From the NCBI GenBank assembly GCA_964421015.1, contig CAYQUS010000001.1, forward strand, positions 364,726 to 428,725: a stretch of 64,000 nucleotides of DNA. Reading direction: 5' to 3'. How positions within the stretch are numbered: position 1 is the stretch's first letter; every line of letters starts with the position of its first letter. The position numbers and the translations under genes are program-made. The notes beneath the pieces were generated by a model that had not been told where the DNA came from, made no database searches, and was given only the letters and a program-made list of their open reading frames with translations. Positions 2,339 through 31,118 of this stretch are shown here, one piece after another. The DNA is from an uncultured Planctomycetia bacterium. GTDB lineage: Bacteria > Omnitrophota > Gorgyraeia > Tantalellales > Tantalellaceae.

Positions 2339-2367
2339 GGTGACAGGCACCGGTGGTGCCTGTCACC
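2339..2367. repeat. REP-like palindrome GGTGACAGGCACC-ggt-GGTGCCTGTCACC
   Basis: Perfect 13-bp arms; lies between the two GT2 genes. Confidence 0.8.
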
Positions 2368-2371
2368 AATA

Positions 2372-3085
2372 TCAGTTGTATTTTCCAGCAAGGTCGTTCA
2401 CCCTTATTTTTGCAAGGCTCAAAAAACTTTTGATGCCGTCCCTTAAAGGTCTGACCTTTGACGTGTACTTATGTTTCCATTCCACGGGTATTTCTTTTAT
2501 CTTGTAGCCGTATTTTTTAGCTATAAAAAGATCTTCCGCGTCAAAGCTCCAATCGTTCATTATCTGTTTTCTGAAAACATCCCGGGAGGACTTTTTGTCG
2601 TATACCTTGAACCCACAGTTGATATCACTTACGCAAAGCCCCAAAAGCATCCTTGCGAAAAGTATGTACACAAGACCCAGTACGCGCCGTAATACCGGCA
2701 CCTTCACATCCGCGCCCGACATGCGCCTTGAAGCTATGTAAATAGAATTTTCGGAGCCGAATTCCGAATAAAACTTCTCAAGCTCTTTTATGGAAGTGGA
2801 ATTATCGGCGTCCATAAAAAGAACGTACTCTCCCCTTGCCTCAAGCATGGCCTTTTTAACAACGTAACCCTTTCCATGATTGGGTTTGCTTTCTATTATC
2901 CTGAAATTGACAATTCGCCCTTCAAATCCTCGGGCTTTGGTGACTGTCCGGTCTGTCGACCCATCATCGGCTAGTATTAGTTCTGAAAGAAAATCTTTTT
3001 TGGACAGATAGCTCTCTATCTCGGATAGAGTACCCTCTATATTCTTTTCTTCGTTGTAAGCAGGGATAATGACAGATAGATACAT
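2372..3085 (-). CDS. GT2 polyprenyl-phosphate sugar synthase-like glycosyltransferase (second paralogue)
   Basis: 'YLSVIIPAYNEEKNI...LILADDGSTDRT...FMDADNS'; 237 aa. Confidence 0.8.
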   Translation of the reverse strand: MYLSVIIPAYNEEKNIEGTLSEIESYLSKKDFLSELILADDGSTDRTVTKARGFEGRIVNFRIIESKPNHGKGYVVKKAMLEARGEYVLFMDADNSTSIKELEKFYSEFGSENSIYIASRRMSGADVKVPVLRRVLGLVYILFARMLLGLCVSDINCGFKVYDKKSSRDVFRKQIMNDWSFDAEDLFIAKKYGYKIKEIPVEWKHKYTSKVRPLRDGIKSFLSLAKIRVNDLAGKYN

Positions 3086-3126
3086 AGTTTTGTCTTATTT
3101 TTATGCGCCTTACATGGAGACACTTT

Positions 3127-3155
3127 GGTGCCTGGCACTAATAGTGCCAGGCACC
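3127..3155. repeat. REP-like palindrome GGTGCCTGGCACT-aat-AGTGCCAGGCACC
   Basis: Perfect 13-bp arms; 5' flank 'gagacactttggtg' shared with the 31080-31093 copy. Confidence 0.8.
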
Positions 3156-3165
3156 GAGTCCCGGA

Positions 3166-4293
3166 CTAGAACGCCAATACGGTATCTATCACGTACTGTA
3201 TCATTTCTTCCGTAAGTTCAGGATATACGGGCAGGGACAGAACGCTTTTCGCGGCCTTCTCGGAAACCGGGAAATCCCCTTCTTTGTGGCCAAGGTTCTT
3301 GTAACATGGCTGAAGATGCATCGGCACAGGATAGTACACCCTTGAGCCTATACCTTTTTCCTCGAGATACTTCAGCATGCCGTCCCTGTCGGGAACCGCT
3401 ATAGTATACTGGTGATAAGTGTGGACATTACCCTCCCCTGTTTTAGGAGCGATTATCTTACCCGAGTTCGAGAATGCCTTATTGTATTCCGCGGCTATCT
3501 TTCTGCGTTTTTCAAGCCAGGTATCAAGTTTTTTAAGCTTAACCCTGAGTATGGCGGCCTGCAGGCTGTCAAGACGGGAATTGTACCCTATAAGATCGTG
3601 AACATACTGTTTGCTGCTTCCATGAACCCTGAGCTTTTTGACAAGCGCGATAAATGCTTCGCTCGAAGAAAGGACCATTCCTCCGTCACCGAACCCGCCC
3701 AGATTCTTGCTGGGGAAAAAGCTAAATGCCCCGGCAAGTCCGAAACTCCCGGCTTTCTTACCCTTGTAGACCGCTCCCATAGCCTGGGCACAGTCCTCTA
3801 TTATCGTAAGCCCATATTTCTCAGCGATAGCCATGATAGGATCCATATCTGCGCACTGGCCATAAAGGTGGACTGGGATAATAGCTTTTATCGTTCTGAG
3901 TTCTGCGTTATTGCGTTTTTGCGTTTCGATTAAAAGTTCCTCGACTTTTCTGGGGTCGATGTTGTATGTGTCGGGATCGATATCGACAAATACCGGTACA
4001 GCGCCAAGAACGGATATTGACTCGGCTGTAGCGAAAAATGTGAAAGGTGTCGTTATTACCCTGTCACCCTCGCCTATACCGGCTGCTTTAAGAGCGAGAA
4101 TTATGGCGTCGGTACCAGAAGCTACACCGACACCGTGAGAAACGCCGGTGTACGCTGCTACTTCCTTTTCAAGAAACGAAACTTCGGGGGAAAGTATAAA
4201 ATGTTGATTTTCAAGGACACCGGCTATAGCCGCGTCTATTTCTTTTTTTATTCCCAGATACTGGCCTTTCAGATCCAAAAGCGATACTTTCAT
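3166..4293 (-). CDS. DegT/DnrJ/EryC1/StrS-family PLP-dependent sugar aminotransferase (Per- or ArnB-like)
   Basis: Family-typical N-terminus 'LLDLKGQY...ENQHFILSPEVSFLEKEVAAYTGVSHGVGVASGTDAI'. The ORF-track start (4317) includes the SD; the true start is ATG 4293 (MKVSLLDL) with AAGGAGAG 11 nt upstream. Confidence 0.85.
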   Translation of the reverse strand: MKVSLLDLKGQYLGIKKEIDAAIAGVLENQHFILSPEVSFLEKEVAAYTGVSHGVGVASGTDAIILALKAAGIGEGDRVITTPFTFFATAESISVLGAVPVFVDIDPDTYNIDPRKVEELLIETQKRNNAELRTIKAIIPVHLYGQCADMDPIMAIAEKYGLTIIEDCAQAMGAVYKGKKAGSFGLAGAFSFFPSKNLGGFGDGGMVLSSSEAFIALVKKLRVHGSSKQYVHDLIGYNSRLDSLQAAILRVKLKKLDTWLEKRRKIAAEYNKAFSNSGKIIAPKTGEGNVHTYHQYTIAVPDRDGMLKYLEEKGIGSRVYYPVPMHLQPCYKNLGHKEGDFPVSEKAAKSVLSLPVYPELTEEMIQYVIDTVLAF

Positions 4294-4352
4294 TATAATG
4301 CCTCTCCTTTTTTTCAACCTCTACCTTAACCTGTCCCTTCTTTTGACCCCTT

Positions 4353-4398
4353 AGTGACAGGCACTACAACTCGGAAAATACGATCTGTGCCAGTCACT
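4353..4398. repeat. REP-like imperfect palindrome AGTGACAGGCAC-N22-GTGCCAGTCACT
   Basis: 11 of 12 arm positions complementary; gmd-degT spacer. Confidence 0.6.
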
Positions 4399-4448
4399 TC
4401 GACCTTAACCTGAACCTCAACCTCTTTCTGCTTCCCCCTTCTTACTTC

Positions 4449-5429
4449 CTACCCCTTGGCTAAATACTCGTAATCCGACTTCACCATCTCGTTAACCAGA
4501 TCTTCGAACGAGAGCTTATATTCCCAGTCCAGTTCTTTTCTGGCTTTAGACGGATCCGCCACAAGAAGATCCACTTCCGCCGGACGGAAAAAATTCTTGT
4601 CTATTTCGACATATTTTTCGTAGTTGAGCCCGAGGTATTTAAAAGCGAGTTCGGCGAACTCCCTAACCGAGTGGGTTTCGCCCGTTCCTATGACATAATC
4701 CTCCGGTCTGTTCCTCTGGAGCATCGAATGCATCGCCTTAACATATTCCCCGGCGTGTCCCCAGTCCCTTTTCGCCTCCAGATTTCCAAGATACAGTTTC
4801 TTTTCTCTTCCAAGTTTTATCCTGGCCGCGGCGGAAGTGATCTTTCTTGTCACAAACTCGTATCCTCTTCTCGGGGACTCATGGTTAAAAAGTATCCCGC
4901 TCACCGCGAACATATCGTACGCCTCCCGGTAATTTCGCGTAAGGTCGAATCCTGCAACCTTGGATATGCCGTAGACGGACCGCGGGTGGAACCTGGTCTT
5001 CTCACTTTGCGGGACTTCCTCTACCCTGCCGAACATCTCGCTGGATGCGGCGAAATAGAACCTGCAATCCGGGACTACGCTCTGGAGAGCCGATAATATG
5101 TAATGCGTGCCGTTTATATTGGCGTTAAGCGTAGAGAACTCGTCTTCGAAAGAATACGTAACAAAACTTTGGGCGGCGAGATGATAACATTCGTCAGGCT
5201 TGATCCTCTGCACTATCTTAAATAAACTCGGATAACTTTCCAGTGACCCTGAATGAAAAACTATCCTGTCGGCTATGTGGTTTATCCTCCACATCCTGTG
5301 TTTCTGGTCCTCGAGAGCCACTCTCCGGACAACACCGTGAACCTCGTATCCCAGTCCCAAAAGATATTCGGCAAGATAACTCCCGTCCTGCCCCGTTATC
5401 CCAGTTATTAAAGCTTTCTTGGCCGGCAT
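4449..5429 (-). CDS. gmd: GDP-mannose 4,6-dehydratase
   Basis: 'KKALITGITGQDGSYLAEYLLGLGYEVHG...YHLAAQSFV' canonical Gmd. Confidence 0.9.
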   Translation of the reverse strand: MPAKKALITGITGQDGSYLAEYLLGLGYEVHGVVRRVALEDQKHRMWRINHIADRIVFHSGSLESYPSLFKIVQRIKPDECYHLAAQSFVTYSFEDEFSTLNANINGTHYILSALQSVVPDCRFYFAASSEMFGRVEEVPQSEKTRFHPRSVYGISKVAGFDLTRNYREAYDMFAVSGILFNHESPRRGYEFVTRKITSAAARIKLGREKKLYLGNLEAKRDWGHAGEYVKAMHSMLQRNRPEDYVIGTGETHSVREFAELAFKYLGLNYEKYVEIDKNFFRPAEVDLLVADPSKARKELDWEYKLSFEDLVNEMVKSDYEYLAKG

Positions 5430-5439
5430 AGTGCTCCTT

Positions 5440-6372
5440 TTATTTTAAAGATCCTTTAGCCCACTCGATAGTTTTGCTGATCCCTTCCTCCAGACTGACC
5501 CTGGGTTCCCAGCCAAGCTCTTTCCTGGCTTTTGTTATATCCGGACGCCTTACCTTGGGATCGTTGACCGGGAGCGGCTTAAAGATTATATCGCTTTTTG
5601 TTCCCGTAAGTCTTTTTATGATTTTGGCGAAATCAAGAACACTCAACTCTTCCGGGTTGCCGATATTCACAGGTTCATTTAGCTTTGAGTTCATAAGACG
5701 TATTATTCCCTCAACAAGATCGGAAACATAGCAGAAACTTCTGGTCTGGGATCCGTCGCCGTAGACTGTCAGCGGCTCTCCCTTAAGGGACTGATCTATA
5801 AAATTCGGCACCACTCTGCCGTCATTATGGCGCATTCTTTCCCCGTAGGTGTTGAATATCCGCACGATCTTAGTGTCAATACCATGGGTCCTGTGATAAG
5901 CCAGGGTTATAGCCTCGGCGAACCTTTTCGCTTCGTCATAACATCCCCTTGGGCCTATGGGATTCACATTTCCCCAGTATGTCTCCGGCTGTGGATTCAC
6001 AAGCGGGTCACCGTAAACCTCGGAAGTCGAGGCCAGGAGAAATTTAGCCTCGTGTTCTTTCGCTACCCCAAGAGCGTTATGTGTGCCGAGAGACCCCACC
6101 TTAAGCGTCTTTATCGGATGCTGCAGATAATCCTCAGGGCTGGCCGGAGAAGCGAAATGCAGCACATAATCTATCTTTTCGTCGAGTATTATGAACTTTG
6201 AGACATCATGCTTTATGAACTCGAAATTCTCATTGGACGCCAGGCGAGAAATATTATCCGTACTTCCGGTTATCAAATTGTCCATACAGACAACTTTGTG
6301 CCCGTCCTTGAGCAACCTCTCCGATAAATGTGATCCAAGAAACCCGGCGCCGCCTGTAAGTAATATCCGCAT
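5440..6372 (-). CDS. UDP-glucuronate decarboxylase family (UXS/ArnA C-domain-like SDR)
   Basis: '[16 protein letters not shown]...[10 protein letters not shown]...[17 protein letters not shown]' UXS hallmark motifs. Confidence 0.8.
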
Positions 6373-6463
6373 ATTAGTCCTTTTTTGTTCCTTTTGTTCT
6401 GTTAAATCAACCTCAACCTTAACCTGAAGCTCAATCTTAGCTCTTTACCCTAACTACTTTAAC

Positions 6464-6622
6464 TCAAAATAACGTGTATATGAACGGCGCCACGGCCGAT
6501 GATTCCGTAAAAAGGACCAGGAGCCCCAGAAGAATAAGAATAACAACTATCGGGAGAAGCCACCATTTTTTTCTTACCTTCATGAAATCCCAAAGCTCTC
6601 TAAAAAGCTCCATTTTTCCCAT
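6464..6622 (-). CDS. SxtK/DUF5989-like 52-aa membrane protein (not in ORF track, below 60 aa)
   Basis: Manual translation: MGKMELFRELWDFMKVRKKWWLLPIVVILILLGLLVLFTESSAVAPFIYTLF*. GAGGAG SD upstream. This family commonly sits next to carbamoyltransferase/SxtJ genes. Confidence 0.6.
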   Translation of the reverse strand: MGKMELFRELWDFMKVRKKWWLLPIVVILILLGLLVLFTESSAVAPFIYTLF

Positions 6623-6682
6623 TTTTTCTCCTCATGTTACTTCGAGTAAATCTTTCCTGTCTTGCAATGTCAAGCAGGCTCG

Positions 6683-7084
6683 TCAATACTGCTTCTCAAG
6701 ACTTTCTCTATCTGCCGATATAACCGCTCTTTTTCTCCAGTAAGTATCTGAGGGCCTGTTGAAATTTTTGTCTAGAATATCCTTGCCCAGAAACCTCATA
6801 ACAAGTCCGATAGGCGTGAGGATAAGGTAATAAACCGCTATAAGTATGACCCTCGTGTTAAACCACCCTATAGCGTGGGCCACCCTTAGAAATATCCTGA
6901 AAACAGGAGAAAGAAGGACCGGAAAGATAAGCGCCGATATAAGAGCCGCGCCTGAAAACCCGGCAAACCACATAAACAGGTTCTCATTGCCTTTTCTGAA
7001 ATGCAAAAAGGACAGTATGGCAAGAATAAGCGCCAAGACCGTTCCGAATTCCCTTAAATCTTTTTTTCCCCAATCGTTTTTCAT
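6683..7084 (-). CDS. SxtJ-like small membrane protein
   Basis: 133 aa with 2-3 TM segments, immediately downstream of the carbamoyltransferase, the usual SxtJ position. Confidence 0.55.
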   Translation of the reverse strand: MKNDWGKKDLREFGTVLALILAILSFLHFRKGNENLFMWFAGFSGAALISALIFPVLLSPVFRIFLRVAHAIGWFNTRVILIAVYYLILTPIGLVMRFLGKDILDKNFNRPSDTYWRKRAVISADRESLEKQY

Positions 7085-7096
7085 CTTTGTATGGCC

Positions 7097-8926
7097 TTAA
7101 TCAAGTTCAAATTCGAACACTTCCTCCAGCCTGAGCCTGGCAGGATCCTGCTGTTTTTTATCTATGACGAAACTACCCATTACCAGATAATCCATATTGG
7201 TTCTCATGAAACAACGGTAAGCGTCATCCGGAGTGCAAACAATAGGTTCACCCCTTACGTTAAATGACGTATTGATAACAAGCGGACATCCATGAAGCTC
7301 TGAAAATTTTTCGATAAGAGCGTAATAATCCGGATTATCTTCCCTTTTTACTGTCTGCACCCTGGCGGAATAGTCTACATGCGTTATGGCGGGAACTTCC
7401 GAGCGCTTTTCTTTAAGTTTTTCCATACCCCGCGATAAAGAGTCATTTTTCATCGGGACCCTCTTCTCTTCGGCAACGGGCGAGACGATCAGCATGTAAG
7501 GGCTTTCTGAATCAAGCCCGAAATATTCTTTGGCGTTCTCCGCGAGGATACTCGGAGCGAAGGGTCTGAAAGACTCCCTGAACTTTATTTTCCTGTTTAT
7601 TACAGACTGCATTTTTTCGGATCGGGGATCCCCAAGGATACTTCTTGAGCCGAGAGCCCTGGGACCGAATTCCATCCTTCCCTGAAACCACCCTATCACG
7701 TTTTCCGCCGCGATCAGGCTTGCCACCCGGGAATAAAGATCCTCTTTTCCCATACGCGTGTAAGGAATACCGTTCTCCTTAAGATATCTTTCCACTTCTT
7801 CATCCGAAAAATCAGGCCCCAGGAGACTCGCCTTTTGTGAATCGCGTGTTTTAGTGGCGTGCCGAACATTACCCAGGTATTCATGCCAGGCAACAAGAGC
7901 CGCGCCAAGAGCTCCGCCGGCATCCGAAGAAGCGGGTTGTATCCAGATCTTTTCAAAGGGACCTTCTCTTAAGACCTTTCCGTTAGACACACAGTTAAGA
8001 GCTACCCCTCCGGCCATGCAAAGATTTCTACAGGATGTCGTATCGTAAAGGTGACGCGCCATCTTCATTACCACGGATTCCGTTACGACCTGCACGGATC
8101 TGGCAAGGTCCATATGTCTCTGTTCGACTTCAGCCTCTTTTTTTCGCGGCGGACCGCCGAAAAGCTTATGAAACTTTCGGTTTGTCATGGTAAGTCCGGC
8201 GCAGTAGTTAAAATACTTCATATTGAGCTTAAAAGAACCGTCCGGTTTGAGATCGATGAGCTCATCAAGAATGATCTGAGCGTATACAGGTTCACCGTAA
8301 GGCGCCAGGCCCATAAGCTTGTATTCTCCGGAATTAACCTTAAAACCGCAATAGTAAGTAAAAGCCGAGTATAAAAGCCCCAGAGAATGAGGGAACCTTA
8401 TCTCCTCAAAAAGTTCTATTCTGTTTCCCCTGCCCTTCCCGAGGGTTACCGTAGCCCATTCTCCCACGCCATCCACCGTAAGAATCGCCGCCTCTTCGAA
8501 TGGAGAGGGGTAAAAAGCGCTGGCCGCGTGAGAATGATGGTGTTCCGGAAAAATGATCCTCCCCTGGTACCCAAGCTCCGACTTTATGTGTTCTTTCATG
8601 AAAAGTTTCTTTTTTATCCAGGGCGGCATAGCTTGAATAAAAGACCGTATTCCGGAAGGGGCATAAGCAAGATAGGTCTCAAGAAGACGTTCGAATTTAA
8701 CAAACGGCTTATCATAAAAGGCCACTACATCCAGATCTCCCGGCTCTACTCCCGCCTCTTTAAGACAGTATTCCACAGCCTTTGACGGAAAAGAAGGATC
8801 ATGTTTCTTCCTCGTGAACCTTTCCTCCTGAGCAGCGGCGATAATATTACCGTTCTCCAAAAGCGCGGCGGCGGAATCGTGATAATAAGCGGAAATTCCA
8901 AGTATGTATGTTTTGTTATTTTTCAT
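7097..8926 (-). CDS. Carbamoyltransferase, NodU/CmcH/SxtI family
   Basis: 'YILGISAYYHDSAAALLENGNIIAAAQEERFTRKKHD' N-terminal ASKHA-like domain plus a C-terminal carbamoyltransferase domain; 609 aa. Confidence 0.9.
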   Translation of the reverse strand: MKNNKTYILGISAYYHDSAAALLENGNIIAAAQEERFTRKKHDPSFPSKAVEYCLKEAGVEPGDLDVVAFYDKPFVKFERLLETYLAYAPSGIRSFIQAMPPWIKKKLFMKEHIKSELGYQGRIIFPEHHHSHAASAFYPSPFEEAAILTVDGVGEWATVTLGKGRGNRIELFEEIRFPHSLGLLYSAFTYYCGFKVNSGEYKLMGLAPYGEPVYAQIILDELIDLKPDGSFKLNMKYFNYCAGLTMTNRKFHKLFGGPPRKKEAEVEQRHMDLARSVQVVTESVVMKMARHLYDTTSCRNLCMAGGVALNCVSNGKVLREGPFEKIWIQPASSDAGGALGAALVAWHEYLGNVRHATKTRDSQKASLLGPDFSDEEVERYLKENGIPYTRMGKEDLYSRVASLIAAENVIGWFQGRMEFGPRALGSRSILGDPRSEKMQSVINRKIKFRESFRPFAPSILAENAKEYFGLDSESPYMLIVSPVAEEKRVPMKNDSLSRGMEKLKEKRSEVPAITHVDYSARVQTVKREDNPDYYALIEKFSELHGCPLVINTSFNVRGEPIVCTPDDAYRCFMRTNMDYLVMGSFVIDKKQQDPARLRLEEVFEFELD

Positions 8927-9050
8927 TCTTTAAGCCGCATTCGTGCCAGTCACTTAAACTAAACCTTGACCTCAACCTTAGCCTGTCTCCAGACACTTAC
9001 ACTCAACCTTAACCTTGCCCCTTTACTTCCCTCTTACTCCTTACATCTTG

Positions 9051-9986
9051 CTACTTGCTCTTAACAAACCACTTAACAGTTCTCTCTAACCCTTCGTGAA
9101 AACCCACTGACGGAGTAACCCCCAGCTTTTCCTTAAGCGCCGTTATATCAGCGTATGTTTTAAGAACATCTCCCCTTCTTTTCTCACCATATACGGGTGG
9201 AATATTTTTCCCCATTATCTTAGCTATCGTTTTGGCTGTTTCGTTCACCGAATAACTTTCCCCGCAGGCCACATTAAAGACCATGCCCGCTACACCCTTT
9301 GCGTGACAAGAAGCTATGTTAGCGTCCACAACGTTCTTTACATAAGTAAAATCCCGAGACTGTTCGCCTGTTCCGTCTATTATACACGGCTGGTCTTTCA
9401 TAAGCCTGTCAATAAAAGCCGGGATAACCGCCGAATACTTTGACTCGGGATTCTGTCTGGGGCCGAAAACGTTGAAATATCTTAGACTTACGGTCTCAAG
9501 GCCCATTGTGTAAGTAAACATCCTGGCATAAAGCTCTCCCGCCAGTTTACTGACGGCATAAGGCGAAATGGGATTGGGGCAAAGACCCTCATGTTCCGGG
9601 AAAACCTCACAGTCGCCGTACGCTGAACTGCTCGAAGCATAAACAAATCTTTTTACTTTGTGTTCGGCCGATATAAGCAGCATATTAAGAGTGCCCCAAA
9701 CGTTGACGTCGTTCGTGGGTACGGGCGCTTCAACGCTTTTAGCTACACTTCTTAAGGCCGCCTGGTGTATAACGTAATCCATTCCGGACACGGCCTTTTT
9801 TACGTCTTCTTCCTTACGAACATCCCCCTTAAGAAATTCTATCTTATCCATAAAGGGCTTTAAATGAGCTTCGAACCCGGTAGAGAGGTTGTCCAGTACG
9901 CGGACGGTCTCGCCTTTAGAAACAAGTTCCTCTACAATGTTGGAGCCTATGAAACCGGCTCCGCCTGTTACCAGGTATTTAGACAT
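9051..9986 (-). CDS. UDP-sugar 4-epimerase, WbpP/TviC-like SDR
   Basis: 'KYLVTGGAGFIGSN...YASSSSAYG...SPYAVSK(YxxxK)...LRYFNVFGPRQ'. Start trimmed to ATG 9986 (MSKYL), which has an AGGAG SD 7 nt upstream. Confidence 0.8.
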   Translation of the reverse strand: MSKYLVTGGAGFIGSNIVEELVSKGETVRVLDNLSTGFEAHLKPFMDKIEFLKGDVRKEEDVKKAVSGMDYVIHQAALRSVAKSVEAPVPTNDVNVWGTLNMLLISAEHKVKRFVYASSSSAYGDCEVFPEHEGLCPNPISPYAVSKLAGELYARMFTYTMGLETVSLRYFNVFGPRQNPESKYSAVIPAFIDRLMKDQPCIIDGTGEQSRDFTYVKNVVDANIASCHAKGVAGMVFNVACGESYSVNETAKTIAKIMGKNIPPVYGEKRRGDVLKTYADITALKEKLGVTPSVGFHEGLERTVKWFVKSK

Positions 9987-10292
9987 GTTTTTACTCCTTG
10001 TAGACACGTTAGTGCCAGGCACCATTACAAACACACGTTGGTTCCCCCTCGCTACAGTTCAGCTATGCAGTTTCAGTTTTCTCTGCTCATAAAACTGCAG
10101 CTTCACTGGCTCGGGACAGTTCGACCAGGCACCGTCTCGTTATTGCGTTTTTGCGTTACGCGTTATTGCGTCATAACCTTAACTTGACTATAGATTCTTC
10201 GCTTCGCTCATAATGACGTCTCTCAGCCTGGACCTTAACCTAAACCTCAGCCTTAACCTACCCGTTTCCCCTTTCTACTTTCTACTTTCTAC

Positions 10293-11606
10293 TTACAACT
10301 TAACTATATTCTCTCCCTTTATCCCCAGTTTCCCGGTAATATTACGGGTATCGAATATTTTTTTAGCGTTCCTCGCCACCAGTTTGTAATCCACATCGGA
10401 ATGGTCGGTAAGGACAATTACGAGGTCCTGTTCCTTGATGAGTTCCGGCAGGATCTTCACGCTCCTGGACTTAAGACCGTGTATGTCAAGGTACGGTATA
10501 TAGCTGTCGTTATATATCCAGGCGGATTTCTTTTTATCCAGGATCTTTATAACGTCCAGAGCCGGTGACTCGCGAAGATCGTTTATGTCCTTTTTGTACG
10601 CCACACCCAGAACAAGTATTTTGGCGCCCTTAAGTTTTTTGCCGGCCGCCTTGAGGAGTTCCTCCACCCTGTCTGCCACGTGCCTGGGGGCGTTGATATT
10701 GACCCTGGCGGCAAGATCTATCATCTTTGTCTCAAACCCTACTTTACGGGCTTTCCAGGAAAGATACATCGGATCCGCCGGTATGCAGTGTCCTCCAACT
10801 CCCGGACCGGGATAGAAAGGCATGAAACCGAAAGGTTTAGTTTTAGCCGCCTCAACGACCTCCCACACGTCTATACCAAGCTTATGACAGAGATGGGCAA
10901 ACTCGTTTATAAGGCCGATATTGACTATCCGGAAAGAGTTTTCCAGAAGTTTCGTGACCTCGGCGGTCTCAGGAGATGTCAGCCCTATGACCTTAGCTGT
11001 AACCTGCTCATAAAGCAGCTTAGCCAGTTCCGTGCACCTGTCTGTTATCCCGCCGACCAGTTTGGGTATGTTTGAAAAGTCGTATTTGGGGTTTCCCGGA
11101 TCTATCCTTTCCGGGGAGAACGCGAGAAAGAAATCCTCTCCCGCCAGGAAAGTCTTTCCGGAAATCGTGGGAAGAAGAATGTCCCTCGTAGTTCCCGGGT
11201 AGGTTGTGCTTTCAAGTACCACAAGCTGGCCTTTTCTGAAATTCTCTTTTACCGTTTTAGCCGCTGAAAGTATATATGAGATATCCGGTTTAAGGGCCTT
11301 GTTTATCGGTGTGGGCACGCAAATTATAATGACGTCACATTTGGAAAGAGCTTTATTGTTGGCCGTAACAGAGAACTTACCGGTTGAAGAGGCTTCGGCT
11401 ATATCCTCGTCTTTCATGTCTCCTATGTAGGATTCCCCTTTCTTAAGGCGGGCTATCCTTTTCTTGCTGGAGTCAAGCCCGATGACATTAAAACCTTTCC
11501 GTGAAAATTGTATGGCCATCGGAAGCCCGACATAACCGAGACCTATAACCCCGACAACGGCTGTTTTGTCTAGAATTTTCTTTTCAAGATTTGTGTATGT
11601 ATTCAT
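10293..11606 (-). CDS. UDP-N-acetyl-D-hexosamine / UDP-glucose 6-dehydrogenase family (WbpO/TviB-like)
   Basis: 'VGVIGLGYVGLPMA' Rossmann fold and 'GGHCIPADP' catalytic Cys motif; 437 aa. It pairs with the adjacent WbpP-like epimerase. Confidence 0.85.
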   Translation of the reverse strand: MNTYTNLEKKILDKTAVVGVIGLGYVGLPMAIQFSRKGFNVIGLDSSKKRIARLKKGESYIGDMKDEDIAEASSTGKFSVTANNKALSKCDVIIICVPTPINKALKPDISYILSAAKTVKENFRKGQLVVLESTTYPGTTRDILLPTISGKTFLAGEDFFLAFSPERIDPGNPKYDFSNIPKLVGGITDRCTELAKLLYEQVTAKVIGLTSPETAEVTKLLENSFRIVNIGLINEFAHLCHKLGIDVWEVVEAAKTKPFGFMPFYPGPGVGGHCIPADPMYLSWKARKVGFETKMIDLAARVNINAPRHVADRVEELLKAAGKKLKGAKILVLGVAYKKDINDLRESPALDVIKILDKKKSAWIYNDSYIPYLDIHGLKSRSVKILPELIKEQDLVIVLTDHSDVDYKLVARNAKKIFDTRNITGKLGIKGENIVKL

Positions 11607-11636
11607 GTTTTTATATCCTTCGTCTTAGAACACATG

Positions 11637-11678
11637 GGTGACAGGCGCTCTGAAAAAGTAATGAGTGCGCCGGTCACC
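11637..11678. repeat. REP-like palindrome GGTGACAGGCGC-N18-GCGCCGGTCACC
   Basis: 11 of 12 complementary; between the rmlD start and the wbpO-like stop. Confidence 0.6.
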
Positions 11679-12561
11679 TTGATATATATTCCCGAAGAGC
11701 CTCTTCCCATTTTCTAAGTTCCATTCCGGTATACGCCGTGAACTTACCGGTATCCATAACCGAAAAAGCGGGCCTCGCGGCCGGCCTTCCCAGACTGTCC
11801 GAAGAAACCGGGACTATCGACGTATCAGACATTTGGGGAACAAAACTTTTTATCTTCACCGCGAATTCATACCAGGAACACTGTCCGGAGTTACACACGT
11901 GATATATCTCACGCCCGTTTACGCCTTTCGCGATAAGCTCCTTCAAAGCCAGCGCAAGATCCTTTGTATATGTCGGAGAGCCCACCTGATCGTTAACCAC
12001 CTTTAGACTCTTTTCCGCGGATGATTTTGATATTATCGTATCGACAAAATTTTTCCCGCCAGGCCCGAAAAGCCAGCTTGTACGCACTATGGCAAAATCT
12101 CCGGCCTGTTTTTTGACGGTTTCTTCCCCCAGGACCTTGGTCCTGGCGTACTCTCCTAAAGGTCCGAGCTCATCGGTTTCTTTGTAAGGAAAGTTCTTCC
12201 TGCCGTCAAAAACAAAATCCGTGCTGATAAAGACCAGTTTGGTCCCGATCGCCCCCGAAACCGATGCCACGTTGATCGTGCCTTCAATGTTTATCCTGCG
12301 GGCCCTGTCCTTGTCCAGTTCGCACCCGTCCACGTCTGTCCATGCCGCCGCATGGATGACAACATCGGGCCTTTCTGTTTCTAAAGCCTTCCTGACCCGG
12401 CCGGCGTCCGATATATCGGCTTCGTAAAATTTATCCAAAGATGGATACCTCGTACCGGGCTCTCTTATGTCCATTCCGGACAACTCTGCCCCGCTCTTTG
12501 AAAGAACACCGCAAAGTTCCTGCCCGAGCATGCCGCTTGAGCCAGTTATCAATATTTTCAT
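11674..12561 (-). CDS. rmlD: dTDP-4-dehydrorhamnose reductase
   Basis: 'MKILITGSSGMLGQEL...VIHAAAWTDVD' RmlD family. Confidence 0.85.
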   Translation of the reverse strand: MKILITGSSGMLGQELCGVLSKSGAELSGMDIREPGTRYPSLDKFYEADISDAGRVRKALETERPDVVIHAAAWTDVDGCELDKDRARRINIEGTINVASVSGAIGTKLVFISTDFVFDGRKNFPYKETDELGPLGEYARTKVLGEETVKKQAGDFAIVRTSWLFGPGGKNFVDTIISKSSAEKSLKVVNDQVGSPTYTKDLALALKELIAKGVNGREIYHVCNSGQCSWYEFAVKIKSFVPQMSDTSIVPVSSDSLGRPAARPAFSVMDTGKFTAYTGMELRKWEEALREYISR

Positions 12562-12591
12562 AGACCCGCTATCCCGGGAAACGCGAGATCC

Positions 12592-13569
12592 TCACCACTT
12601 TATGATCTCGGCTTTTTCCCTGAGTTTTCTCCACCAAAGTTCATTACCCTTGTACCAGCGCACCGTCTTGTCTATATCTCCCGAAAAATCCGAAGAGGGT
12701 TTCCACCCCAAATCTTTCATTTTAGAAGAATCAAGAGCGTACCTTCTGTCATGCCCCGGCCTGTCCTTCACATACTCGATAAGATCTTTTCCCTTCCCCA
12801 TCGAGGATAGTATGGCGTTTGTAAGGTCAAGGTTGGAGACGTGGTTGCCGCCGCCTATATTGTATATTTCTCCGCTCTTTCCTTTACGCATTACTATATC
12901 CAGGCCTCTGCAGTTGTCCTCCACAAAAATCCAGTCCCTTACGTTACCGCCGTCCCCGTAAAGCGGGACTTTTTTACCATCGATAAGGTTGGTTATAAAA
13001 AGAGGTATTACCTTCTCGGGGAACTGATACGGTCCGAAATTGTTAGAACTCCTCGTGACTATTACAGGCAGACCGTATGTGGTGAAATACGAAAGGGCCA
13101 GAAGGTCGGCCGCGGCCTTGGTGGCCGAGTAGGGACTATTAGGCTTAAGGGGATCTTCTTCCGATGAAAGCCCCTTGGCCACGCTGCCGTAAACCTCATC
13201 CGTACCTATCTGTATGAATCTGGACACCCCTTTTTTTCGGGCCGCTTCGAGAAGCGTCTTTGTGCCGTAGACATTAGTTACGATAAAGTCGTCGGGGTAT
13301 TTTATAGACCTGTCCACATGGGTTTCCGCCGCGAAATTCACCACAACGTCAGACGCCCCCACGAGAGACTCCACAAGTTCCTTGTCGCATATATCACCTT
13401 TAACGAAAGAATAACGGGCGTCAGACGATATATCGTCGAGACTCTCCGGGTTACCGCAATACGTGAGCTTGTCGAGGTTAGTTATCCTTATATCCTTGTA
13501 CTCCCGGAGCAAAAGCCTTATAAAATTCGACCCTATAAAGCCGCACCCTCCCGTCACCAGAAGCCTCAT
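12592..13569 (-). CDS. rmlB: dTDP-glucose 4,6-dehydratase
   Basis: 'MRLLVTGGCGFIGSNFIRLLL...NFAAETHVDRSI'. Start trimmed to 13569; its ATGA overlaps the rmlA stop. Confidence 0.9.
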   Translation of the reverse strand: MRLLVTGGCGFIGSNFIRLLLREYKDIRITNLDKLTYCGNPESLDDISSDARYSFVKGDICDKELVESLVGASDVVVNFAAETHVDRSIKYPDDFIVTNVYGTKTLLEAARKKGVSRFIQIGTDEVYGSVAKGLSSEEDPLKPNSPYSATKAAADLLALSYFTTYGLPVIVTRSSNNFGPYQFPEKVIPLFITNLIDGKKVPLYGDGGNVRDWIFVEDNCRGLDIVMRKGKSGEIYNIGGGNHVSNLDLTNAILSSMGKGKDLIEYVKDRPGHDRRYALDSSKMKDLGWKPSSDFSGDIDKTVRWYKGNELWWRKLREKAEIIKW

Positions 13570-14312
13570 TCGGCGCCCTCCCCTGAAAACTTTTTCTCTT
13601 CTTTTTCGGCCACCAGATTGGTAGCTCTCCGAAGCGACCTGAAAGTTCCGGCATCGGTCCACCAGCCGTCAAGCATGGAGTATTCCAGCTGGCCTTTTTT
13701 GATATACATATTGTTAACGTCGGTGATCTCAAGCTCTCCCCTGTCAGAGGGATCAAGTCCCTTTATAAAATCAAAAACCTGCGGATCGTACATATACACG
13801 CCGGTAACTATGTAATTCGTAGGCGGATTTTTGGGCTTTTCTATTATCCTTTTTATCTTCTTGCCGTCAAATTCCACGACGCCGAACCTTTCGGGGTTGG
13901 AGGACTCCTTTATCATTATACGAGCGCCTTTTTTCTGCGCGGCGAACTTCTCGACTTCGCTTTTTATGCTTTTTTCAATTATGTTGTCTCCAAGAATAAC
14001 GACACATTTGTCGTTATCGGCAAAGTATTCGGCAAGGCCCAGGGCCTCGGCTATGCCACCCTCTTTTTCCTGATAGGCGTAATTTATCCCTTTGAGGCCG
14101 AATTCCGTTCCGTTACCGAGAAGCCGGAGAAAACTTCCAGCGTGGCTGCCGCCCGTAACTACCATTATCTCGGTTATTCCGGCGTCCACAAGGGTCTGTA
14201 TGGGATAATAGATCATGGGTTTATCGTAAACAGGAAGAAGATGCTTGTTGGTTATCTTTGTCAGGGGGAAAAGCCTGCTGCCAAGACCGCCCGCTAGTAC
14301 TATACCTTTCAT
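13566..14312 (-). CDS. rmlA: Glucose-1-phosphate thymidylyltransferase (short form)
   Basis: 'MKGIVLAGGLGSRLFPLTKITNKHLLPVYDKPMIYYPI'. Confidence 0.9.
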   Translation of the reverse strand: MKGIVLAGGLGSRLFPLTKITNKHLLPVYDKPMIYYPIQTLVDAGITEIMVVTGGSHAGSFLRLLGNGTEFGLKGINYAYQEKEGGIAEALGLAEYFADNDKCVVILGDNIIEKSIKSEVEKFAAQKKGARIMIKESSNPERFGVVEFDGKKIKRIIEKPKNPPTNYIVTGVYMYDPQVFDFIKGLDPSDRGELEITDVNNMYIKKGQLEYSMLDGWWTDAGTFRSLRRATNLVAEKEEKKFSGEGAE

Positions 14313-14374
14313 GAATCCACCTTTTTATTTAGATCCTTCGGTCGCTTCGCTTCCTCAGGATGACGTTCGCCTCG

Positions 14375-14821
14375 TTATTTCTTCCAGTCAAACGGTATAT
14401 CGTTGTCAAAAGCATCTACACGGTACTCGTCAGGATCGTTCTTATCGTAGGGCCGGGTTACCGTATTTATGACCACAGCCTCCTCATCGCTCACACACTT
14501 GAACCCGTGGTACACTTCGGCCGGGATCTGTACGAGAAGAGGGTTCTCGAGGCTGATAGTGTACTCTTCCGTTTTACCGTAAGTCGGGGAAGTTTTCCGG
14601 GCGTCATAAAGACCCAGTCGCATCTTCCCTCTTATGCATGTAAAGTTATCAGTCTGCTTTTTATGATAATGCCATGCTTTCACCACTCCGGGAAAAGCCG
14701 TTGTCATGTAAACCTGCCCGAAAACCTGGAAAATATCATCGTCGTTCCGTAATATTTCCATCAAACGTCCGCGGTCATCCGGTATGAGCCTTAGTTTTTT
14801 CACTTTGACGCCCTCTATCAT
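14375..14821 (-). CDS. rmlC: dTDP-4-dehydrorhamnose 3,5-epimerase-like cupin
   Basis: 148-aa cupin with 'RGLHYH'-type motif (here 'KAWHYHKKQTD'); it lies in an rmlC-A-B-D gene order. Confidence 0.8.
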   Translation of the reverse strand: MIEGVKVKKLRLIPDDRGRLMEILRNDDDIFQVFGQVYMTTAFPGVVKAWHYHKKQTDNFTCIRGKMRLGLYDARKTSPTYGKTEEYTISLENPLLVQIPAEVYHGFKCVSDEEAVVINTVTRPYDKNDPDEYRVDAFDNDIPFDWKK

Positions 14822-14875
14822 TGTTGCTCCTTTCTATACATATTGGTGCCCCCTCACTGCCAGGCACCAAAACCC

Positions 14876-16183
14876 TCAGCTCGACGCCCGGCCTATCCCC
14901 TCATATGTAAAACCCATCTTGGCCATCTTTTTCGGGTCGTATATGTTGCGGCCGTCCAGTACCGCGGGCTCGGCCATCTCTTTCTTTATTCTCGCCCAAT
15001 CAACCTCTTTAAATTCGTTCCATTCCGTCATAACGGCCACGCAATCGGCTCCGGAGGCGGCCTCGTAGACGCTCGAACAGAATTCTATTTTGCCCGAGTC
15101 CGCCAGTTCCCTCTCGGCGTTTACCGCAGCCACGGGATCATAAGCTTTTATTTTAGCTCCCTGGGAAAGCAAACGCCTTATTATGTCGATAGCCGGCGCC
15201 GAACGTATATCGTCGGTATCAGGCTTAAAAGCAAGGCCCCATACGGCAATGACCTTACCGGAGATGTTCCACATCATCTTACGTATCTTTTCGACCACCA
15301 TTTCTTTCTGGCGCTCGTTTATCTTTTCCACCTCTTTAAGAAGCCCGAAATCATACCCCATATTCTCGCAGATATGTATGAAGGCCTTGAGGTCTTTCGG
15401 AAAACACGACCCTCCGAACCCTACGCCGGCCCTCAAAAAGTGGCGATTTATCCTGGAGTCCAGCCCTATGCCCTCGGCTACCTGCTCAACGTCCGCCCCG
15501 GTTTTCTCGCATATATTGCTGAGCGCGTTGATGAACGATATCTTTGTAGCCAGGAACGAGTTAGCCGCGTGTTTTATTATCTCCGCGCCTTTTATGTTAG
15601 TTACCACTATCTTAGTGTTCAGCGGCTCATAAAGCTCTCTCAAAAGTTTCTCGGCTCGCTGTGACTCCACGCCTATCACTACCCTATCCGGGTTCATAAA
15701 GTCTTTTATAGCCGATCCTTCCCTCAGGAATTCAGGATTGGACGCTATCTCGAATTCACTGCCGCTTTTATTGAACTTACTTATCGTGCGTCTCACCCAT
15801 TCCCCTGTTTCCACCGGAACAGTGCTCTTTTCCACTATAAGTTTGTACGAATCAACATGTTCCGCTATATCCTTGGACACCTTCTCTATACCCGTGAGGT
15901 CAGCGCTACCGTCATCTCTGGGAGGGGTACCCACACAAATAAAAACTACCTCTGACCCGGAAACCGCTTTTTTGATGTCGGTTGTAAAGCTTAACCTGCC
16001 GCCTTTAACGTTCTTCTTTATGAGCTCGTCAAGCCCCGGCTCATATATGGGAACGCCCCCTTTTTTGAGAGTATCTATCTTAACGGGGTCGCTGTCGGCG
16101 CATATTACCTGGTTACCCAGATCCGAGAAACAGGTTCCCGTTACAAGACCCACATAACCGCTGCCGACTATAGTTATTTTCAT
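14876..16183 (-). CDS. ugd: UDP-glucose 6-dehydrogenase
   Basis: 'MKITIVGSGYVGLVTG...VFICVGTP'. Start trimmed to 16183; GGAGAAAGG SD upstream. Confidence 0.9.
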   Translation of the reverse strand: MKITIVGSGYVGLVTGTCFSDLGNQVICADSDPVKIDTLKKGGVPIYEPGLDELIKKNVKGGRLSFTTDIKKAVSGSEVVFICVGTPPRDDGSADLTGIEKVSKDIAEHVDSYKLIVEKSTVPVETGEWVRRTISKFNKSGSEFEIASNPEFLREGSAIKDFMNPDRVVIGVESQRAEKLLRELYEPLNTKIVVTNIKGAEIIKHAANSFLATKISFINALSNICEKTGADVEQVAEGIGLDSRINRHFLRAGVGFGGSCFPKDLKAFIHICENMGYDFGLLKEVEKINERQKEMVVEKIRKMMWNISGKVIAVWGLAFKPDTDDIRSAPAIDIIRRLLSQGAKIKAYDPVAAVNAERELADSGKIEFCSSVYEAASGADCVAVMTEWNEFKEVDWARIKKEMAEPAVLDGRNIYDPKKMAKMGFTYEGIGRASS

Positions 16184-16400
16184 AATACGCCTTTCTCCTG
16201 TTAAGGGAGAAGAAAACACATATTCACAGGAGCTTAAAAAATGAATATTCCCTTATAATAATAAAGGTCACATCCCTGTTTAACAAATACTGTAAAACAT
16301 CAAAAAACAGCGCCCCAAAAAGCGAAAAACTAAGTTGAAATTATAGCATACCCCTATAAAGGCCGCAATAAAATATGGGTTAGAAGTTGTAGGGGGAAAC

Positions 16401-16443
16401 CCGCGGGGAGAGTGTATCCGAGCACCACAAACGATCCGCCGCC
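16401..16443. repeat. Conserved 43-bp intergenic element, copy 1 (39/43 identical to copy 2 at 31145-31187)
   Basis: ccgcggggagagtgtatccgagcaccacaaacgatccgccgcc. It lies 134 bp after the lptD-like stop and 218 bp before the ugd start. Confidence 0.7.
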
Positions 16444-16576
16444 CGGAAGGGATAAAAATAAGGACACCCCCTGAAGAATCTACTCCTGAAGTATAAAGAT
16501 AGCAGGCTGATCTTGAGGAGCGCAGGATACGCTCTCCCTTAGGTAATCGGTTAGTTCAAGCCGGCACAACCAGATA

Positions 16577-19318: not shown

Positions 19319-19396
19319 ATCTTCCTTCTTGTTTTTTACCGCCAGCAGTATACCACTTTGAAAATCAAAAATCTACCGCGGTTTTAAGGAATATGC

Positions 19397-23323: not shown

Positions 23324-23422
23324 TTTATCACTTTTTTTATTTTCAGGAAAATCTTCTTCCCTAAACTATATACAACAGTCTGACAGCCATTGTCAACGCA
23401 ATTCAGGCCGTTCCCGGGCCCG

Positions 23423-24265: not shown

Positions 24266-24282
24266 CTTTTTTCCTTATTTTG

Positions 24283-25970: not shown

Positions 25971-25971
25971 C

Positions 25972-26226: not shown

Positions 26227-26237
26227 TCTGTCTCCTT

Positions 26238-27356: not shown

Positions 27357-27394
27357 ACTTTCCTTTAAAGCCTCCCCAAAAGCGCCAAGGCCTG

Positions 27395-29305: not shown

Positions 29306-29316
29306 AGTTATCCTCC

Positions 29317-29892
29317 TTATTCCATTTCCCCGGCTATTTCATCTAAACTGTTCTTCGCCACTTTCACCTGAGCGGCGCGCAGTAATCTGTCATTGAACAC
29401 GTACCCCGGCCTTACCTCCTCAACTATCTCACCGTCAGGGACATCGCCGGTCTCAACCGCCATGACGGCCTCATGCAGATTGGGATCGAACTGTTTTCCA
29501 ACCGTTTCTATTTTTTTAACTCCCGAATCCTCAAGCACACGGTGAAACTCCTTCTGCACGAGCTTTATGCCTTCAAGCATAGCGCCTTTATCCTCGGCCT
29601 TTTCCATTGCCGCGAAAGCCATATCAAAATTATCCATGATCGGGAAAAGCCTCGATATTATCCCTTCGTTCGCGAACCTTATATGCTCGTATTTCTCTTT
29701 CTCCAGCCTTTTTTTGGTATTCTCATACTCGGCGTGCACATTGAGCCATTTGTTGTAGTACTCGTCCCTTTCGGCAGCCTTTTTCCTCAGGTCCTCTGCT
29801 TCCGGGGGGAACGATTGCCCTGCGTCCTGTGACTCATCATCCCGGACATCCCGGGAAGCGGCGTCATCTTTGTGTTTTTTGTCCCTGTGCAT
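29317..29892 (-). CDS. grpE: Nucleotide exchange factor GrpE
   Basis: GrpE-family C-terminal region '[20 protein letters not shown]'; sits in the dnaK operon. Confidence 0.85.
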
Positions 29893-29894
29893 GG

Positions 29895-30953
29895 TTATCC
29901 GTCTATCTCCTCAAGTTTCGCGCTTATAAGGCTGGAAAGGCACCTTACTGTCCTTAGCGCCCTGTCATAATCCATCCTGGTAGGCCCCACAACTCCCATT
30001 CTCCCGGCGGCCTTACCCCTGAAAAAATAACCGCAGGTAACTATACTGCAGTCTTTTAGTATCTCGCTGCCGCACTCCTCGCCGATGTAAACCCTTACGT
30101 CTCCCGAAGAGAGATCTCTGGTGAGTATACCGGCAAGCTCGCTCTTCCTGTCCGAAAAAACGTGAAAAACCTTGCGTATGACGTTTATGTCCGAAAATTC
30201 CGGCTCATTCATGAAGTTGTCTATGCCTTCCATGTATATCTCGCTGTCCGCGTTATCGCTTACAATACCGTCCAGTACCTTCAGCGCCGTAAGAGCCGTT
30301 TCTCTGGCCTCTCCCCTGAGCTCACCGGAAACTTTATCCATGGCTGTCTTTATGTTCTCAGATATCCCCGATACAGGTTTTTCGGCGTGATTTTCGTTTA
30401 TGTACCTCGCCACCCTGCCAAGCTCATCCGAACTCATCTCTCTATCCAGCCTTATCAGGTGGTTTTTAACGGCATTGGTCATAGTAACAAGCACCGCCAG
30501 GGCCATCTGAGAACTCAATTTAATAAGTTCAAGATGCTTGAGGTAGAGATTGTCCACTCCGGGCCAAACCATCACTCCGGCATTGTGAAGTTCCCTGCTT
30601 ATAAGATACGTCGTCTTCTCTATGACGTCTTTTATGGTCTCTATCTTTCTCGTATACTCCTGCGCCAGCCGTTCAGCCTCTCTTTTGCGGTAGCTTATGT
30701 TCTCGGTCTTCATCGAGACATAACGCCTGTACCCTGCGGTTGTCGGGACACGTCCCGCCGAAGTATGCGGCTGCTCTATGAACCCCTGATGCTCGAGCTC
30801 TCCCATAACGTTCCTGATGGTAGCGCTTGAGACATTCCCTCCCATTTTCTCGGCCACTGTCTTAGAGCTCACCGGTACTGCGCTCGAAACATAAGCCTCA
30901 ACAATATGGGCTAGAACGATGTCTTTTCTGTGGTCTTTACGCAAATTGTCCAC
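29895..30953 (-). CDS. hrcA: Heat-inducible transcription repressor HrcA (GTG start)
   Basis: wHTH N-terminus, HrcA family, directly downstream of a CIRCE operator. Confidence 0.9.
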   Translation of the reverse strand: MDNLRKDHRKDIVLAHIVEAYVSSAVPVSSKTVAEKMGGNVSSATIRNVMGELEHQGFIEQPHTSAGRVPTTAGYRRYVSMKTENISYRKREAERLAQEYTRKIETIKDVIEKTTYLISRELHNAGVMVWPGVDNLYLKHLELIKLSSQMALAVLVTMTNAVKNHLIRLDREMSSDELGRVARYINENHAEKPVSGISENIKTAMDKVSGELRGEARETALTALKVLDGIVSDNADSEIYMEGIDNFMNEPEFSDINVIRKVFHVFSDRKSELAGILTRDLSSGDVRVYIGEECGSEILKDCSIVTCGYFFRGKAAGRMGVVGPTRMDYDRALRTVRCLSSLISAKLEEIDG

Positions 30954-30983
30954 TTTTATCTGACCTCACTACTTGAAAATCTT

Positions 30984-31010
30984 TTAGCACTCTTTTAGTT
31001 CGAGTGCCAA
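30984..31010 (-). promoter_or_regulatory. CIRCE operator (HrcA binding site)
   Basis: TTAGCACTC-N9-GAGTGCCAA versus consensus TTAGCACTC-N9-GAGTGCTAA (one mismatch); 30 nt upstream of the hrcA GTG. Confidence 0.85.
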
Positions 31011-31011
31011 A

Positions 31012-31039
31012 ATTATATCATTGTCGATGTTTTTGTCAA
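31012..31039 (-). promoter_or_regulatory. Sigma70-type promoter of the hrcA-grpE-dnaK-dnaJ operon
   Basis: On the minus strand: TTGACA (31034-31039), 16 nt, TATAAT (31012-31017), immediately 5' of CIRCE. Confidence 0.7.
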
Positions 31040-31089
31040 GAGGAAGGTTCGAGGCAGTGAGGGGATGAGGTTGGAAACACAGACACTTT

Positions 31090-31118
31090 GGTGACAGGCA
31101 CCAATGGTGCCTGTCACC
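31090..31118. repeat. REP-like palindrome GGTGACAGGCACC-aat-GGTGCCTGTCACC (perfect 13-bp arms); probable hflX terminator
   Basis: Seen directly; shares the 5' flank 'agacactttggtg' with the copy at 3117-3155. Confidence 0.8.

Follow-up and report, generated by a model that had tools for sequence, protein, structure and literature searches.

In a 64-kb window of DNA from an uncultured bacterium of the Omnitrophota (the window being the whole stretch analysed here, positions 364,726 to 428,725 of contig CAYQUS010000001.1, assembly GCA_964421015.1) we have identified a family of short hairpins that occurs far above chance and is strictly extragenic. The hairpins have no U-tract and no GTAG/CGTC tag, they have no physical link to the one gene in the window that resembles a repetitive extragenic palindrome (REP)-associated tyrosine transposase (RAYT), and they are not conserved at orthologous positions in relatives. 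They are an ordinary kind of bacterial repeat, and we think it rather probable that they are untagged REP-like stem-loop repeats which have proliferated through some trans-acting activity, with a likely consequence at the RNA level. The closest named homologues of the HrcA and DegT proteins encoded in the window come from Omnitrophota metagenome-assembled genomes. Omnitrophota is an uncultured phylum of very small cells in which, as far as the literature searched shows, REP-like repeats have not previously been described; a literature search by motif sequence returned primer matches only and no bacterial mention.

Copy counts, spacer fractions and gene calls given for the family all refer to the 64-kb window. 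The core, GTGNCNGGCAC, has 13 strand matches there, against 0.23 ± 0.58 expected (100 shuffles, maximum 3). These matches lie at eight loci, all of them intergenic: five hairpins (three perfect and two imperfect), one short form and two single units, designated A1 to A8.

2339-2367, A1: perfect hairpin, GGTGACAGGCACC-GGT-GGTGCCTGTCACC, with arms that extend to 15 nt; it follows the stop of the GT2 glycosyltransferase gene 2372-3085 by 4 nt and precedes the start of the GT2 gene 1557-2273 by 65 nt; RNA fold -28.6 kcal/mol, z = -7.7.
3127-3155, A2: perfect hairpin, GGTGCCTGGCACT-AAT-AGTGCCAGGCACC, each arm itself palindromic, left flank GACACTTT; 10 nt past the DegT stop; RNA fold -30.6 kcal/mol.
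4353-4398, A3: imperfect hairpin, AGTGACAGGCACT...TGTGCCAGTCACT, 11 of 13 positions paired, loop of 20 nt; 50 nt past the stop of a GDP-mannose-dehydratase-like gene; RNA fold -18.3 kcal/mol.
8942-8954, A4: single unit whose minus-strand sequence is AGTGACTGGCACG; 15 nt before the start of the carbamoyltransferase gene.
10011-10023, A5: single unit, AGTGCCAGGCACC, flanked on the left by GACACGTT; 24 nt before the start (9986) of the epimerase gene.
11637-11678, A6: imperfect hairpin, GGTGACAGGCGCT...TGCGCCGGTCACC, 11 of 13 positions paired, loop of 16 nt, in which an A-T pair has become G-C by compensated change; right arm overlapping the rmlD-like stop codon (11674-11676); RNA fold -20.8 kcal/mol, z = -4.2.
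14845-14868, A7: short form, TTGGTGCC-loop-GGCACCAA, with an 8-bp stem; 7 nt past a UDP-glucose-dehydrogenase stop; RNA fold -14.3 kcal/mol.
31090-31118, A8: perfect hairpin with the arms of A1, loop AAT and left flank GACACTTT; it follows the hflX stop by 183 nt and precedes the -35 element of the conserved hrcA promoter by 51 nt; RNA fold -31.7 kcal/mol, z = -8.5.

All eight sites had been listed in the original prediction of at least eight palindrome copies, and each is borne out, including the assignment of 2339, 3127 and 31090 as perfect and of 4353 and 11637 as imperfect hairpins; the half-site placed at 8943 begins one base earlier here. The shared flank that it described is likewise real: GACACTTTGGTG is exact at 3119-3130 and 31082-31093 and recurs with 2 mismatches at 10003-10014. 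Allowing up to 2 mismatches, all convincing copies fall within 2339-31118, and there is no copy in the 31.2-64 kb part of the window. One locus depends on a gene call, as A5 lies inside a mechanical open reading frame (ORF), 9051-10034, and is intergenic if the ATG at 9986, which is preceded by a Shine-Dalgarno sequence, is taken as the start. That start gives a protein of 311 amino acids, against 310 in orthologues, and A5 was counted as intergenic. Spacers make up about 8% of the window, so that on our own arithmetic, which assumes eight independent sites, the chance of finding 8/8 loci in spacers is P ~2e-9. The elements are, as described, a family of REP-type repeats that are short, lie outside genes and form hairpins.

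The arm is 13 nt long, GGTG(A/C)C(A/T)GGCAC(C/T), and is a near palindrome of the form GGTGCC-N-GGCACC (6-1-6) that either stands alone, as a single unit, or forms an inverted pair around a loop of 3-20 nt; A4 and A5, the single units, are 11-13 nt long and each nearly self-palindromic. Across the family the units span 29-46 nt, with stems of 8-15 bp and folding energies of -14 to -32 kcal/mol, a REP-like size and structure, and the three perfect hairpins have 13-15-bp stems, 3-nt loops and energies of -28.6 to -31.7 kcal/mol (z -6.4 to -8.5). The two arms are kept complementary. The distinct hairpins number only four, and direct reading of their sequences gives compensated double substitutions at 5 of 13 stem positions (G-C/A-T at position 1, A-T/C-G at position 5, A-T/T-A at position 7, A-T/G-C at position 11 and C-G/T-A at position 13); at position 11, for example, most copies have GGCAC/GTGCC and the hairpin at 11637 has GGCGC/GCGCC.

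A near-palindromic arm is also what might be expected if the elements were operators for a dimeric transcription factor, binding the 13-bp GGTGCC-N-GGCACC and co-regulating hrcA together with the sugar-nucleotide/glycan gene cluster (1557-16219) in which seven of the eight loci lie. The unpaired or short units at 8942, 10011 and 14845 fit such a reading, as does the concentration of sites in a single functional cluster, and most of the listed hairpins of other organisms have C or T as their 13th base, the one that completes the 6-1-6 palindrome. However, the A/C asymmetry of the arm GTGACAGGCAC is mirrored exactly in its partner GTGCCTGTCAC, which argues that these are true inverted repeats and not pairs of independent protein-binding palindromes; a model of double-stranded DNA half-sites has no need of such mirroring. 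The spacing of the arms is moreover variable, from 16 to 33 nt, and many copies are next to stop codons rather than promoters. The comparison with relatives set out below also bears on this reading, to which we give very little probability.

The hairpins stand between genes of the same strand, overlapping the upstream stop codon at 11637 and lying 4, 7, 10, 50, 96, 183 and 269 nt past it at the other loci. The claim that all of them sit just 3' of minus-strand genes is therefore accurate for half of the loci (overlap, 4, 7 and 10 nt) and fails for the remainder (50, 96, 183 and 269 nt). It had further been suggested that the hairpins double as intrinsic terminators, and stable G+C-rich stems directly downstream of several stop codons might indeed be read as Rho-independent terminators between genes; hairpins of low-GC organisms that carry the same stem, GGTGNCNGGCAC(C/T), also have A-run and T-run flanks, like bidirectional terminators. 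In the window, however, T-runs are missing from both sides of every copy, a terminator scan of positions 1-16500 called none of the hairpins, and the copies are found inside tightly packed same-strand arrays that look co-transcribed. The terminator function is accordingly not upheld, and we attach scarcely any probability to it.

The original prediction joined the hairpins to the transposase gene of the window as a REP/RAYT system. According to this explanation, the RAYT-like transposase would recognise and multiply the GGTGACAGGCACC hairpins. The gene and the palindromes that accompany it are as follows.

33519-34151, minus strand: RAYT-like Y1 HuH transposase gene, 210 amino acids, with the HuH motif H75-I-H77 and a tyrosine motif around Y165.
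33832-33859: GTAG double-foot REP, GTAGGGGCACGGCA/TGCCGTGCCCCTAC, in frame inside the RAYT-like gene, between the HuH and tyrosine motifs.
33548-33575: degenerate GTAG palindrome overlapping the 3' end of the RAYT-like gene.
59738-59765: variant of the GTAG palindrome, in frame in the coding sequence of an S-adenosylmethionine-dependent methyltransferase (ORF 59101-59874; ...RRGTVCCGPTK...).

That the gene is a genuine Y1 HuH transposase gene of RAYT type is supported by a Pfam Y1_Tnp score of 32.1 bits (cut-off 23) and by an NCBIfam REP_Tyr_transpos score of 73.4 bits, just below the cut-off of 80; H75-I-H77 and Y165, the HuH motif and catalytic tyrosine that characterise RAYTs, are conserved in the alignment of homologues. 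It is wedged between miaB and miaA, with its ATG directly against the final base of the miaB ORF and its stop next to the miaA start as called on the Logan contig. In relatives the miaB-miaA gap is 35 bp (L122, 7596-7631) or 109 bp with no gene called (L124, 781-891).

Apart from the presence of this gene, the association with the hairpins is favoured by their REP-like size, structure and location and by the occurrence of GGCAC/GTGCC in both palindrome families. Nevertheless, no copy of the hairpin family flanks the RAYT-like gene, as a RAYT would be flanked by its own REP, and the nearest is 2.4 kb away. The hairpins also have neither a GTAG (GT[AG]G) nor a CGTC foot, their flanks being TTTGGTG, CTTAGTG, GTTAGTG, ATGGGTG and ATTGGTG. 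The gene carries a different palindrome, GTAG-GGG...CCC-CTAC at 33832-33859, with a partial direct copy alongside. Quentin et al. (2018, PMC6006769) describe for TnpAREP subclass 2.4 double-foot REPs with 5' GT[AG]G and 3' C[TC]AC, three G-C pairs at the bottom of the stem, and a position in frame between HuH and Y, and this arrangement is the one found in 33519-34151. The same insert is present in RAYT homologues from many phyla, read as CRGTACRAPT or, in the other frame, as VGARHAVPL. A tblastn search with the RAYT protein found no homologue in 1.7 Mb of listed hairpin-bearing loci, which is weak evidence as RAYTs are single-copy. The position of the GTAG palindrome inside and at the 3' end of the gene, which the hairpins do not flank, argues that the hairpins are not the repeats of this RAYT, and we regard their mobilisation by it as unlikely. 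The GTAG double-foot palindrome is probably the cognate repeat of the gene, separate from the hairpin family. Judged from these motifs, the window does contain a REP/RAYT system, and its REP is the GTAG family; two palindrome families are thereby separated in one window, with the RAYT gene assigned to the double-foot family.

Comparison with relatives addresses whether the hairpins keep their places. The gene order miaB-miaA-hflX-hrcA-grpE-dnaK-dnaJ is common to four relatives, and in the hflX-hrcA spacer a sigma-70-like promoter and a CIRCE operator align in all four that were compared. In the window both are on the minus strand:

31039-31034 and 31017-31012, minus strand: hrcA promoter, TTGACA and TATAAT.
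31010-30984, minus strand: CIRCE operator, TTGGCACTC-N9-GAGTGCTAA.

The hairpin of this spacer lies upstream of the promoter/CIRCE block and is present only in the window and in relative L125; L122 and L124 have no hairpin there, and their promoter and CIRCE operator are conserved. The L125 hairpin has a 21-nt loop and a GACAC-bearing flank whose orientation relative to hrcA is opposite to that in the window. The orthologous glycan clusters of L247 (17.3 kb) and L249 (21.1 kb), whose DegT proteins are 81% identical to that of the window, contain no copies, even when 1 mismatch is permitted, and have different repeats in their spacers, such as AAAGGGGACAGGC...GCCTGTCCCCTTT hairpins, GTCATTGCGAGG...CGAAGCAATC units and ACGCAATAACG arrays. 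Operators would be expected at orthologous promoter positions, and L247, L249, L122 and L124 are without the site. The absence from L247 and L249 and the variable presence between hflX and hrcA suggest repeats that spread and decay; on this comparison the hairpins are lineage-specific, recently spread repeats and not conserved regulators.

Another account would have no dispersed family at all, the copies having arisen within the glycan cluster purely by local duplication or by gene conversion; in its favour, 15 kb holds seven of the eight loci and the window's other ~4 kb of spacer holds none. Yet at a distance of 28.7 kb, upstream of hrcA, there is a near-identical copy (94% over 31 nt); L125 carries the element in that spacer too, oppositely oriented; and on related contigs it occurs in unrelated gene contexts. 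Metagenome contigs have the short-loop form with related (T)TGGTG-type flanks between the genes for a peroxiredoxin and BaxI, after an RlmL-like gene and near plsY/engA, and two of these contigs have a non-coding element in common with the window. Among the 120 metagenome loci listed, 30% of hairpins are within ORFs of at least 100 amino acids, compared with 83% of random positions. Something more than local duplication is thus involved, as the original prediction had supposed, and duplication confined to the cluster carries little probability. Local spread of the hairpins, or a role related to the cluster, is possible because the seven loci exceed the cluster's share of spacer.

How might such repeats have arisen and what might they do? 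According to the model that we favour, the untagged hairpins would have spread into permissive intergenic spacers of the Omnitrophota genome, beside other small repeat modules, propagating through a trans-acting enzyme either as non-autonomous elements or by copying of the palindrome. As they lie inside same-strand gene arrays, they would be transcribed into very stable RNA hairpins. These could act as barriers to 3'->5' exonucleases and so confer differential stability on upstream segments of polycistronic mRNA, and the copies that overlap a stop codon or lie within 10 nt of one (A1, A2, A6 and A7) might in addition hinder terminating ribosomes and attenuate translation. E. coli REPs within 15 nt of the end of an ORF have been linked to translational control (PMC12306157, citing Liang, Rudd and Deutscher 2015). 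The hairpins would then mark sites where expression inside a long glycan operon may be tuned.

Several points weigh against this model. No mobilising enzyme has been assigned to the hairpins, and neither a target-site duplication nor a clean insertion boundary can be defined at the copies. The 15-kb glycan cluster holds seven of the eight loci, a concentration with P ~2e-4 given the spacer lengths (our own arithmetic), and the copy number rests on 64 kb of genome, whereas REPs are usually dispersed over a genome in more than 100 copies. There are no G-U pairs in the stems, so that selection at the RNA level is inseparable from maintenance of a palindrome at the DNA level.

Among known systems, the hairpins are like the enterobacterial REPs and BIMEs (bacterial interspersed mosaic elements) in being palindromes of 20-40 nt that are strictly extragenic, placed between same-strand genes and often just past stops, that form stable RNA hairpins without a U-tract and that share their spacers with other short motifs in what may be mosaics. 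They differ in being unrelated in sequence, in lacking the GTAG foot, in having perfect stems without bulges and in their Omnitrophota host, and no alternating-orientation arrays were seen. The REPs mobilised by RAYTs are tagged with GTAG/CGTC (PMC3733652, PMC6006769); the RAYT-like gene of the window carries such a REP, whereas the hairpins are untagged and form a different family. Untagged REP-like stem-loop families do exist (PMC3733652), for example the stem-loop sequence families of M. tuberculosis, D. radiodurans, Bordetella, Brucella and cyanobacteria (PMC3733652). Like these, the hairpins are dispersed palindromes with no conserved terminal tetranucleotide and no known transposase; unlike them, they have another sequence, belong to another phylum and have an arm that is itself a near-perfect 6-1-6 palindrome. 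A REPIN consists of two inverted REPs with a short spacer that form a larger hairpin (Bertels and Rainey 2011, PMC3116915), whereas the hairpins are all singletons with a whole gene between neighbours; even the closest two, 2339 and 3127, have a 714-nt gene between them. No Rfam family matches in the window.

Other identities were considered and rejected. Chance GG-N10-GC matches of the short-loop hairpins to a sigma-54 promoter were set aside on our reading of the sequences, as the loop length is not fixed (3 to 20 nt) and the element is a palindrome. Integron attC-like cassette boundaries are contradicted by the absence of a GTTRRRY core and of an integrase and by the conserved gene order in relatives; a miniature inverted-repeat transposable element with terminal inverted repeats and target-site duplication, by the lack of direct repeats in the flanks; and an NtrC-type dyad (GCACC-N5-GGTGC), by a spacing that is unfit and inconstant.

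Beyond the Omnitrophota, a permissive scan of genome contigs with GGTGNCNGGCAC-N0-30-GTGCCNGNCACC gave at least 120 matches from many phyla, and a scan of metagenome contigs with the exact type-A arms also gave at least 120. Among the matches listed, the stem GGTGNCNGGCAC(C/T) is found in hairpin repeats of many phyla, at G+C contents from 0.33 to 0.72, in at least six families that have the same outer stem and different inner palindromes; the shared arm is present in Bacillaceae, Anaerolineae, Thermoleophilia, Acidobacteriota, Planctomycetota, Gammaproteobacteria and Omnitrophota. One example, from Neobacillus and Bacillus, is GGTG(T/A)CAGGCACC-ATGTGAA...TTCACAT-GGTGCCTG(A/T)CACC. The 13th base, which is outside both search patterns, is C or T in 102 of 105 listed metagenome hairpins and pairs as C-G or T-A in 84 of 109 listed genome hairpins, and the C/T bias suggests a genuinely shared motif. 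In viral contigs the real stem had 0 matches and two scrambled stems 1 and 0, counts too few to compare. It is conceivable, if rather doubtful, that GGTG(C/A/T)C-N-GGCAC(C/T) is a hairpin foot common to otherwise unrelated repeat families in many phyla; the resemblance could instead be ascertainment from very large databases. A recent survey reports relatively low similarity of REP sequences across taxa (PMC12306157). A truly shared foot would imply a conserved trans-acting partner, such as a nuclease, a transposase or a DNA- or RNA-binding protein, or alternatively repeated horizontal spread of a minimal mobile hairpin.

The spacers that hold the hairpins appear to be mosaics that resemble BIME architecture. 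Two further small modules share them, with no regular architecture seen:

2282-2319, 10193-10217 and 14332-14364, all plus strand: module B, GATYCTTCG...TCAGRATGAC, weak hairpins by fold.
4395-4424, 6408-6425, 8961-8978, 9004-9021 and 10230-10247, plus strand: module C, (AACCTN)n hexamer runs.

On the sense strand module B reads GTCATCCTGAG...CGAAGGATC, and in relative L249 a variant, GTCATTGCGAGG...CGAAGCAATC, occurs at 1703, 4125-4380, 8172 and 9312, with six copies at 51-nt spacing inside a called 91-amino-acid ORF. Module C, which reads (NAGGTT)n on the mRNA strand, is in five spacers of the glycan cluster; in L125 a related (GACCTC/GAACCT)n run stands beside the hairpin at 262-295, in the opposite orientation relative to the genes. 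L249 also has a hairpin family of its own, AAAGGGGACAGGC-(~38 nt)-GCCTGTCCCCTTT, at 12443-12520, 14609-14630 and 15364-15440, which has a GACAGGC core in common with the arm of the window hairpins. A short run of the octamer CGTTATTG at 10138-10171 corresponds, in L247, to ACGCAATAACG-type repeats that are arrayed over 375 bp upstream of DegT; repeats of this type are at 9626-10000 and 12440-12540 in that relative.

A longer structured element is also present:

16394-16540, plus strand: conserved, rod-like structured element of ~150 nt with a long closing stem, without Rfam match.

Three sequences of this element show compensatory change at 6 pairs, and a partial copy in the hflX-hrcA spacer (31145-31188) repeats its 5' 44 nt at 91% identity. 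In relatives (L125 6-103, L137 243-387, L195 1335-1436) it adjoins hairpin repeats. The element may represent a small RNA that lacks annotation, possibly of 6S type.

The genes of the window are on the minus strand almost throughout and begin with the glycan cluster:

1557-16219, minus strand: sugar-nucleotide/glycan cluster with two GT2 glycosyltransferase genes, DegT, GDP-mannose-dehydratase-like and epimerase genes.
1557-16219, minus strand, further genes: carbamoyltransferase with SxtJ, two UDP-glucose dehydrogenases, rmlA, rmlB, rmlD and rmlC-like.

The cluster is followed by lptD, two GGDEF genes, an ABC ATPase gene, accD and DUF1015, next by hrcA-grpE-dnaK-dnaJ, hflX and miaA, and then by the Y1 transposase gene and miaB. 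Beyond miaB come a serine recombinase gene and a low-GC stretch with the look of an integrated element:

35422-56724: probable integrated element adjoining miaB.
35422-37101: large serine recombinase gene of this element.
37969-40098: primase-polymerase/D5-type helicase gene of this element.

These genes are followed by a block of tightly packed genes with a G+C content of 0.36-0.47, and the element contains zero copies of the hairpin family. Further along, at 57930-58247, a small stand-alone GIY-YIG nuclease gene (105 amino acids, without NCBIfam match) lies beside a SET-domain gene.

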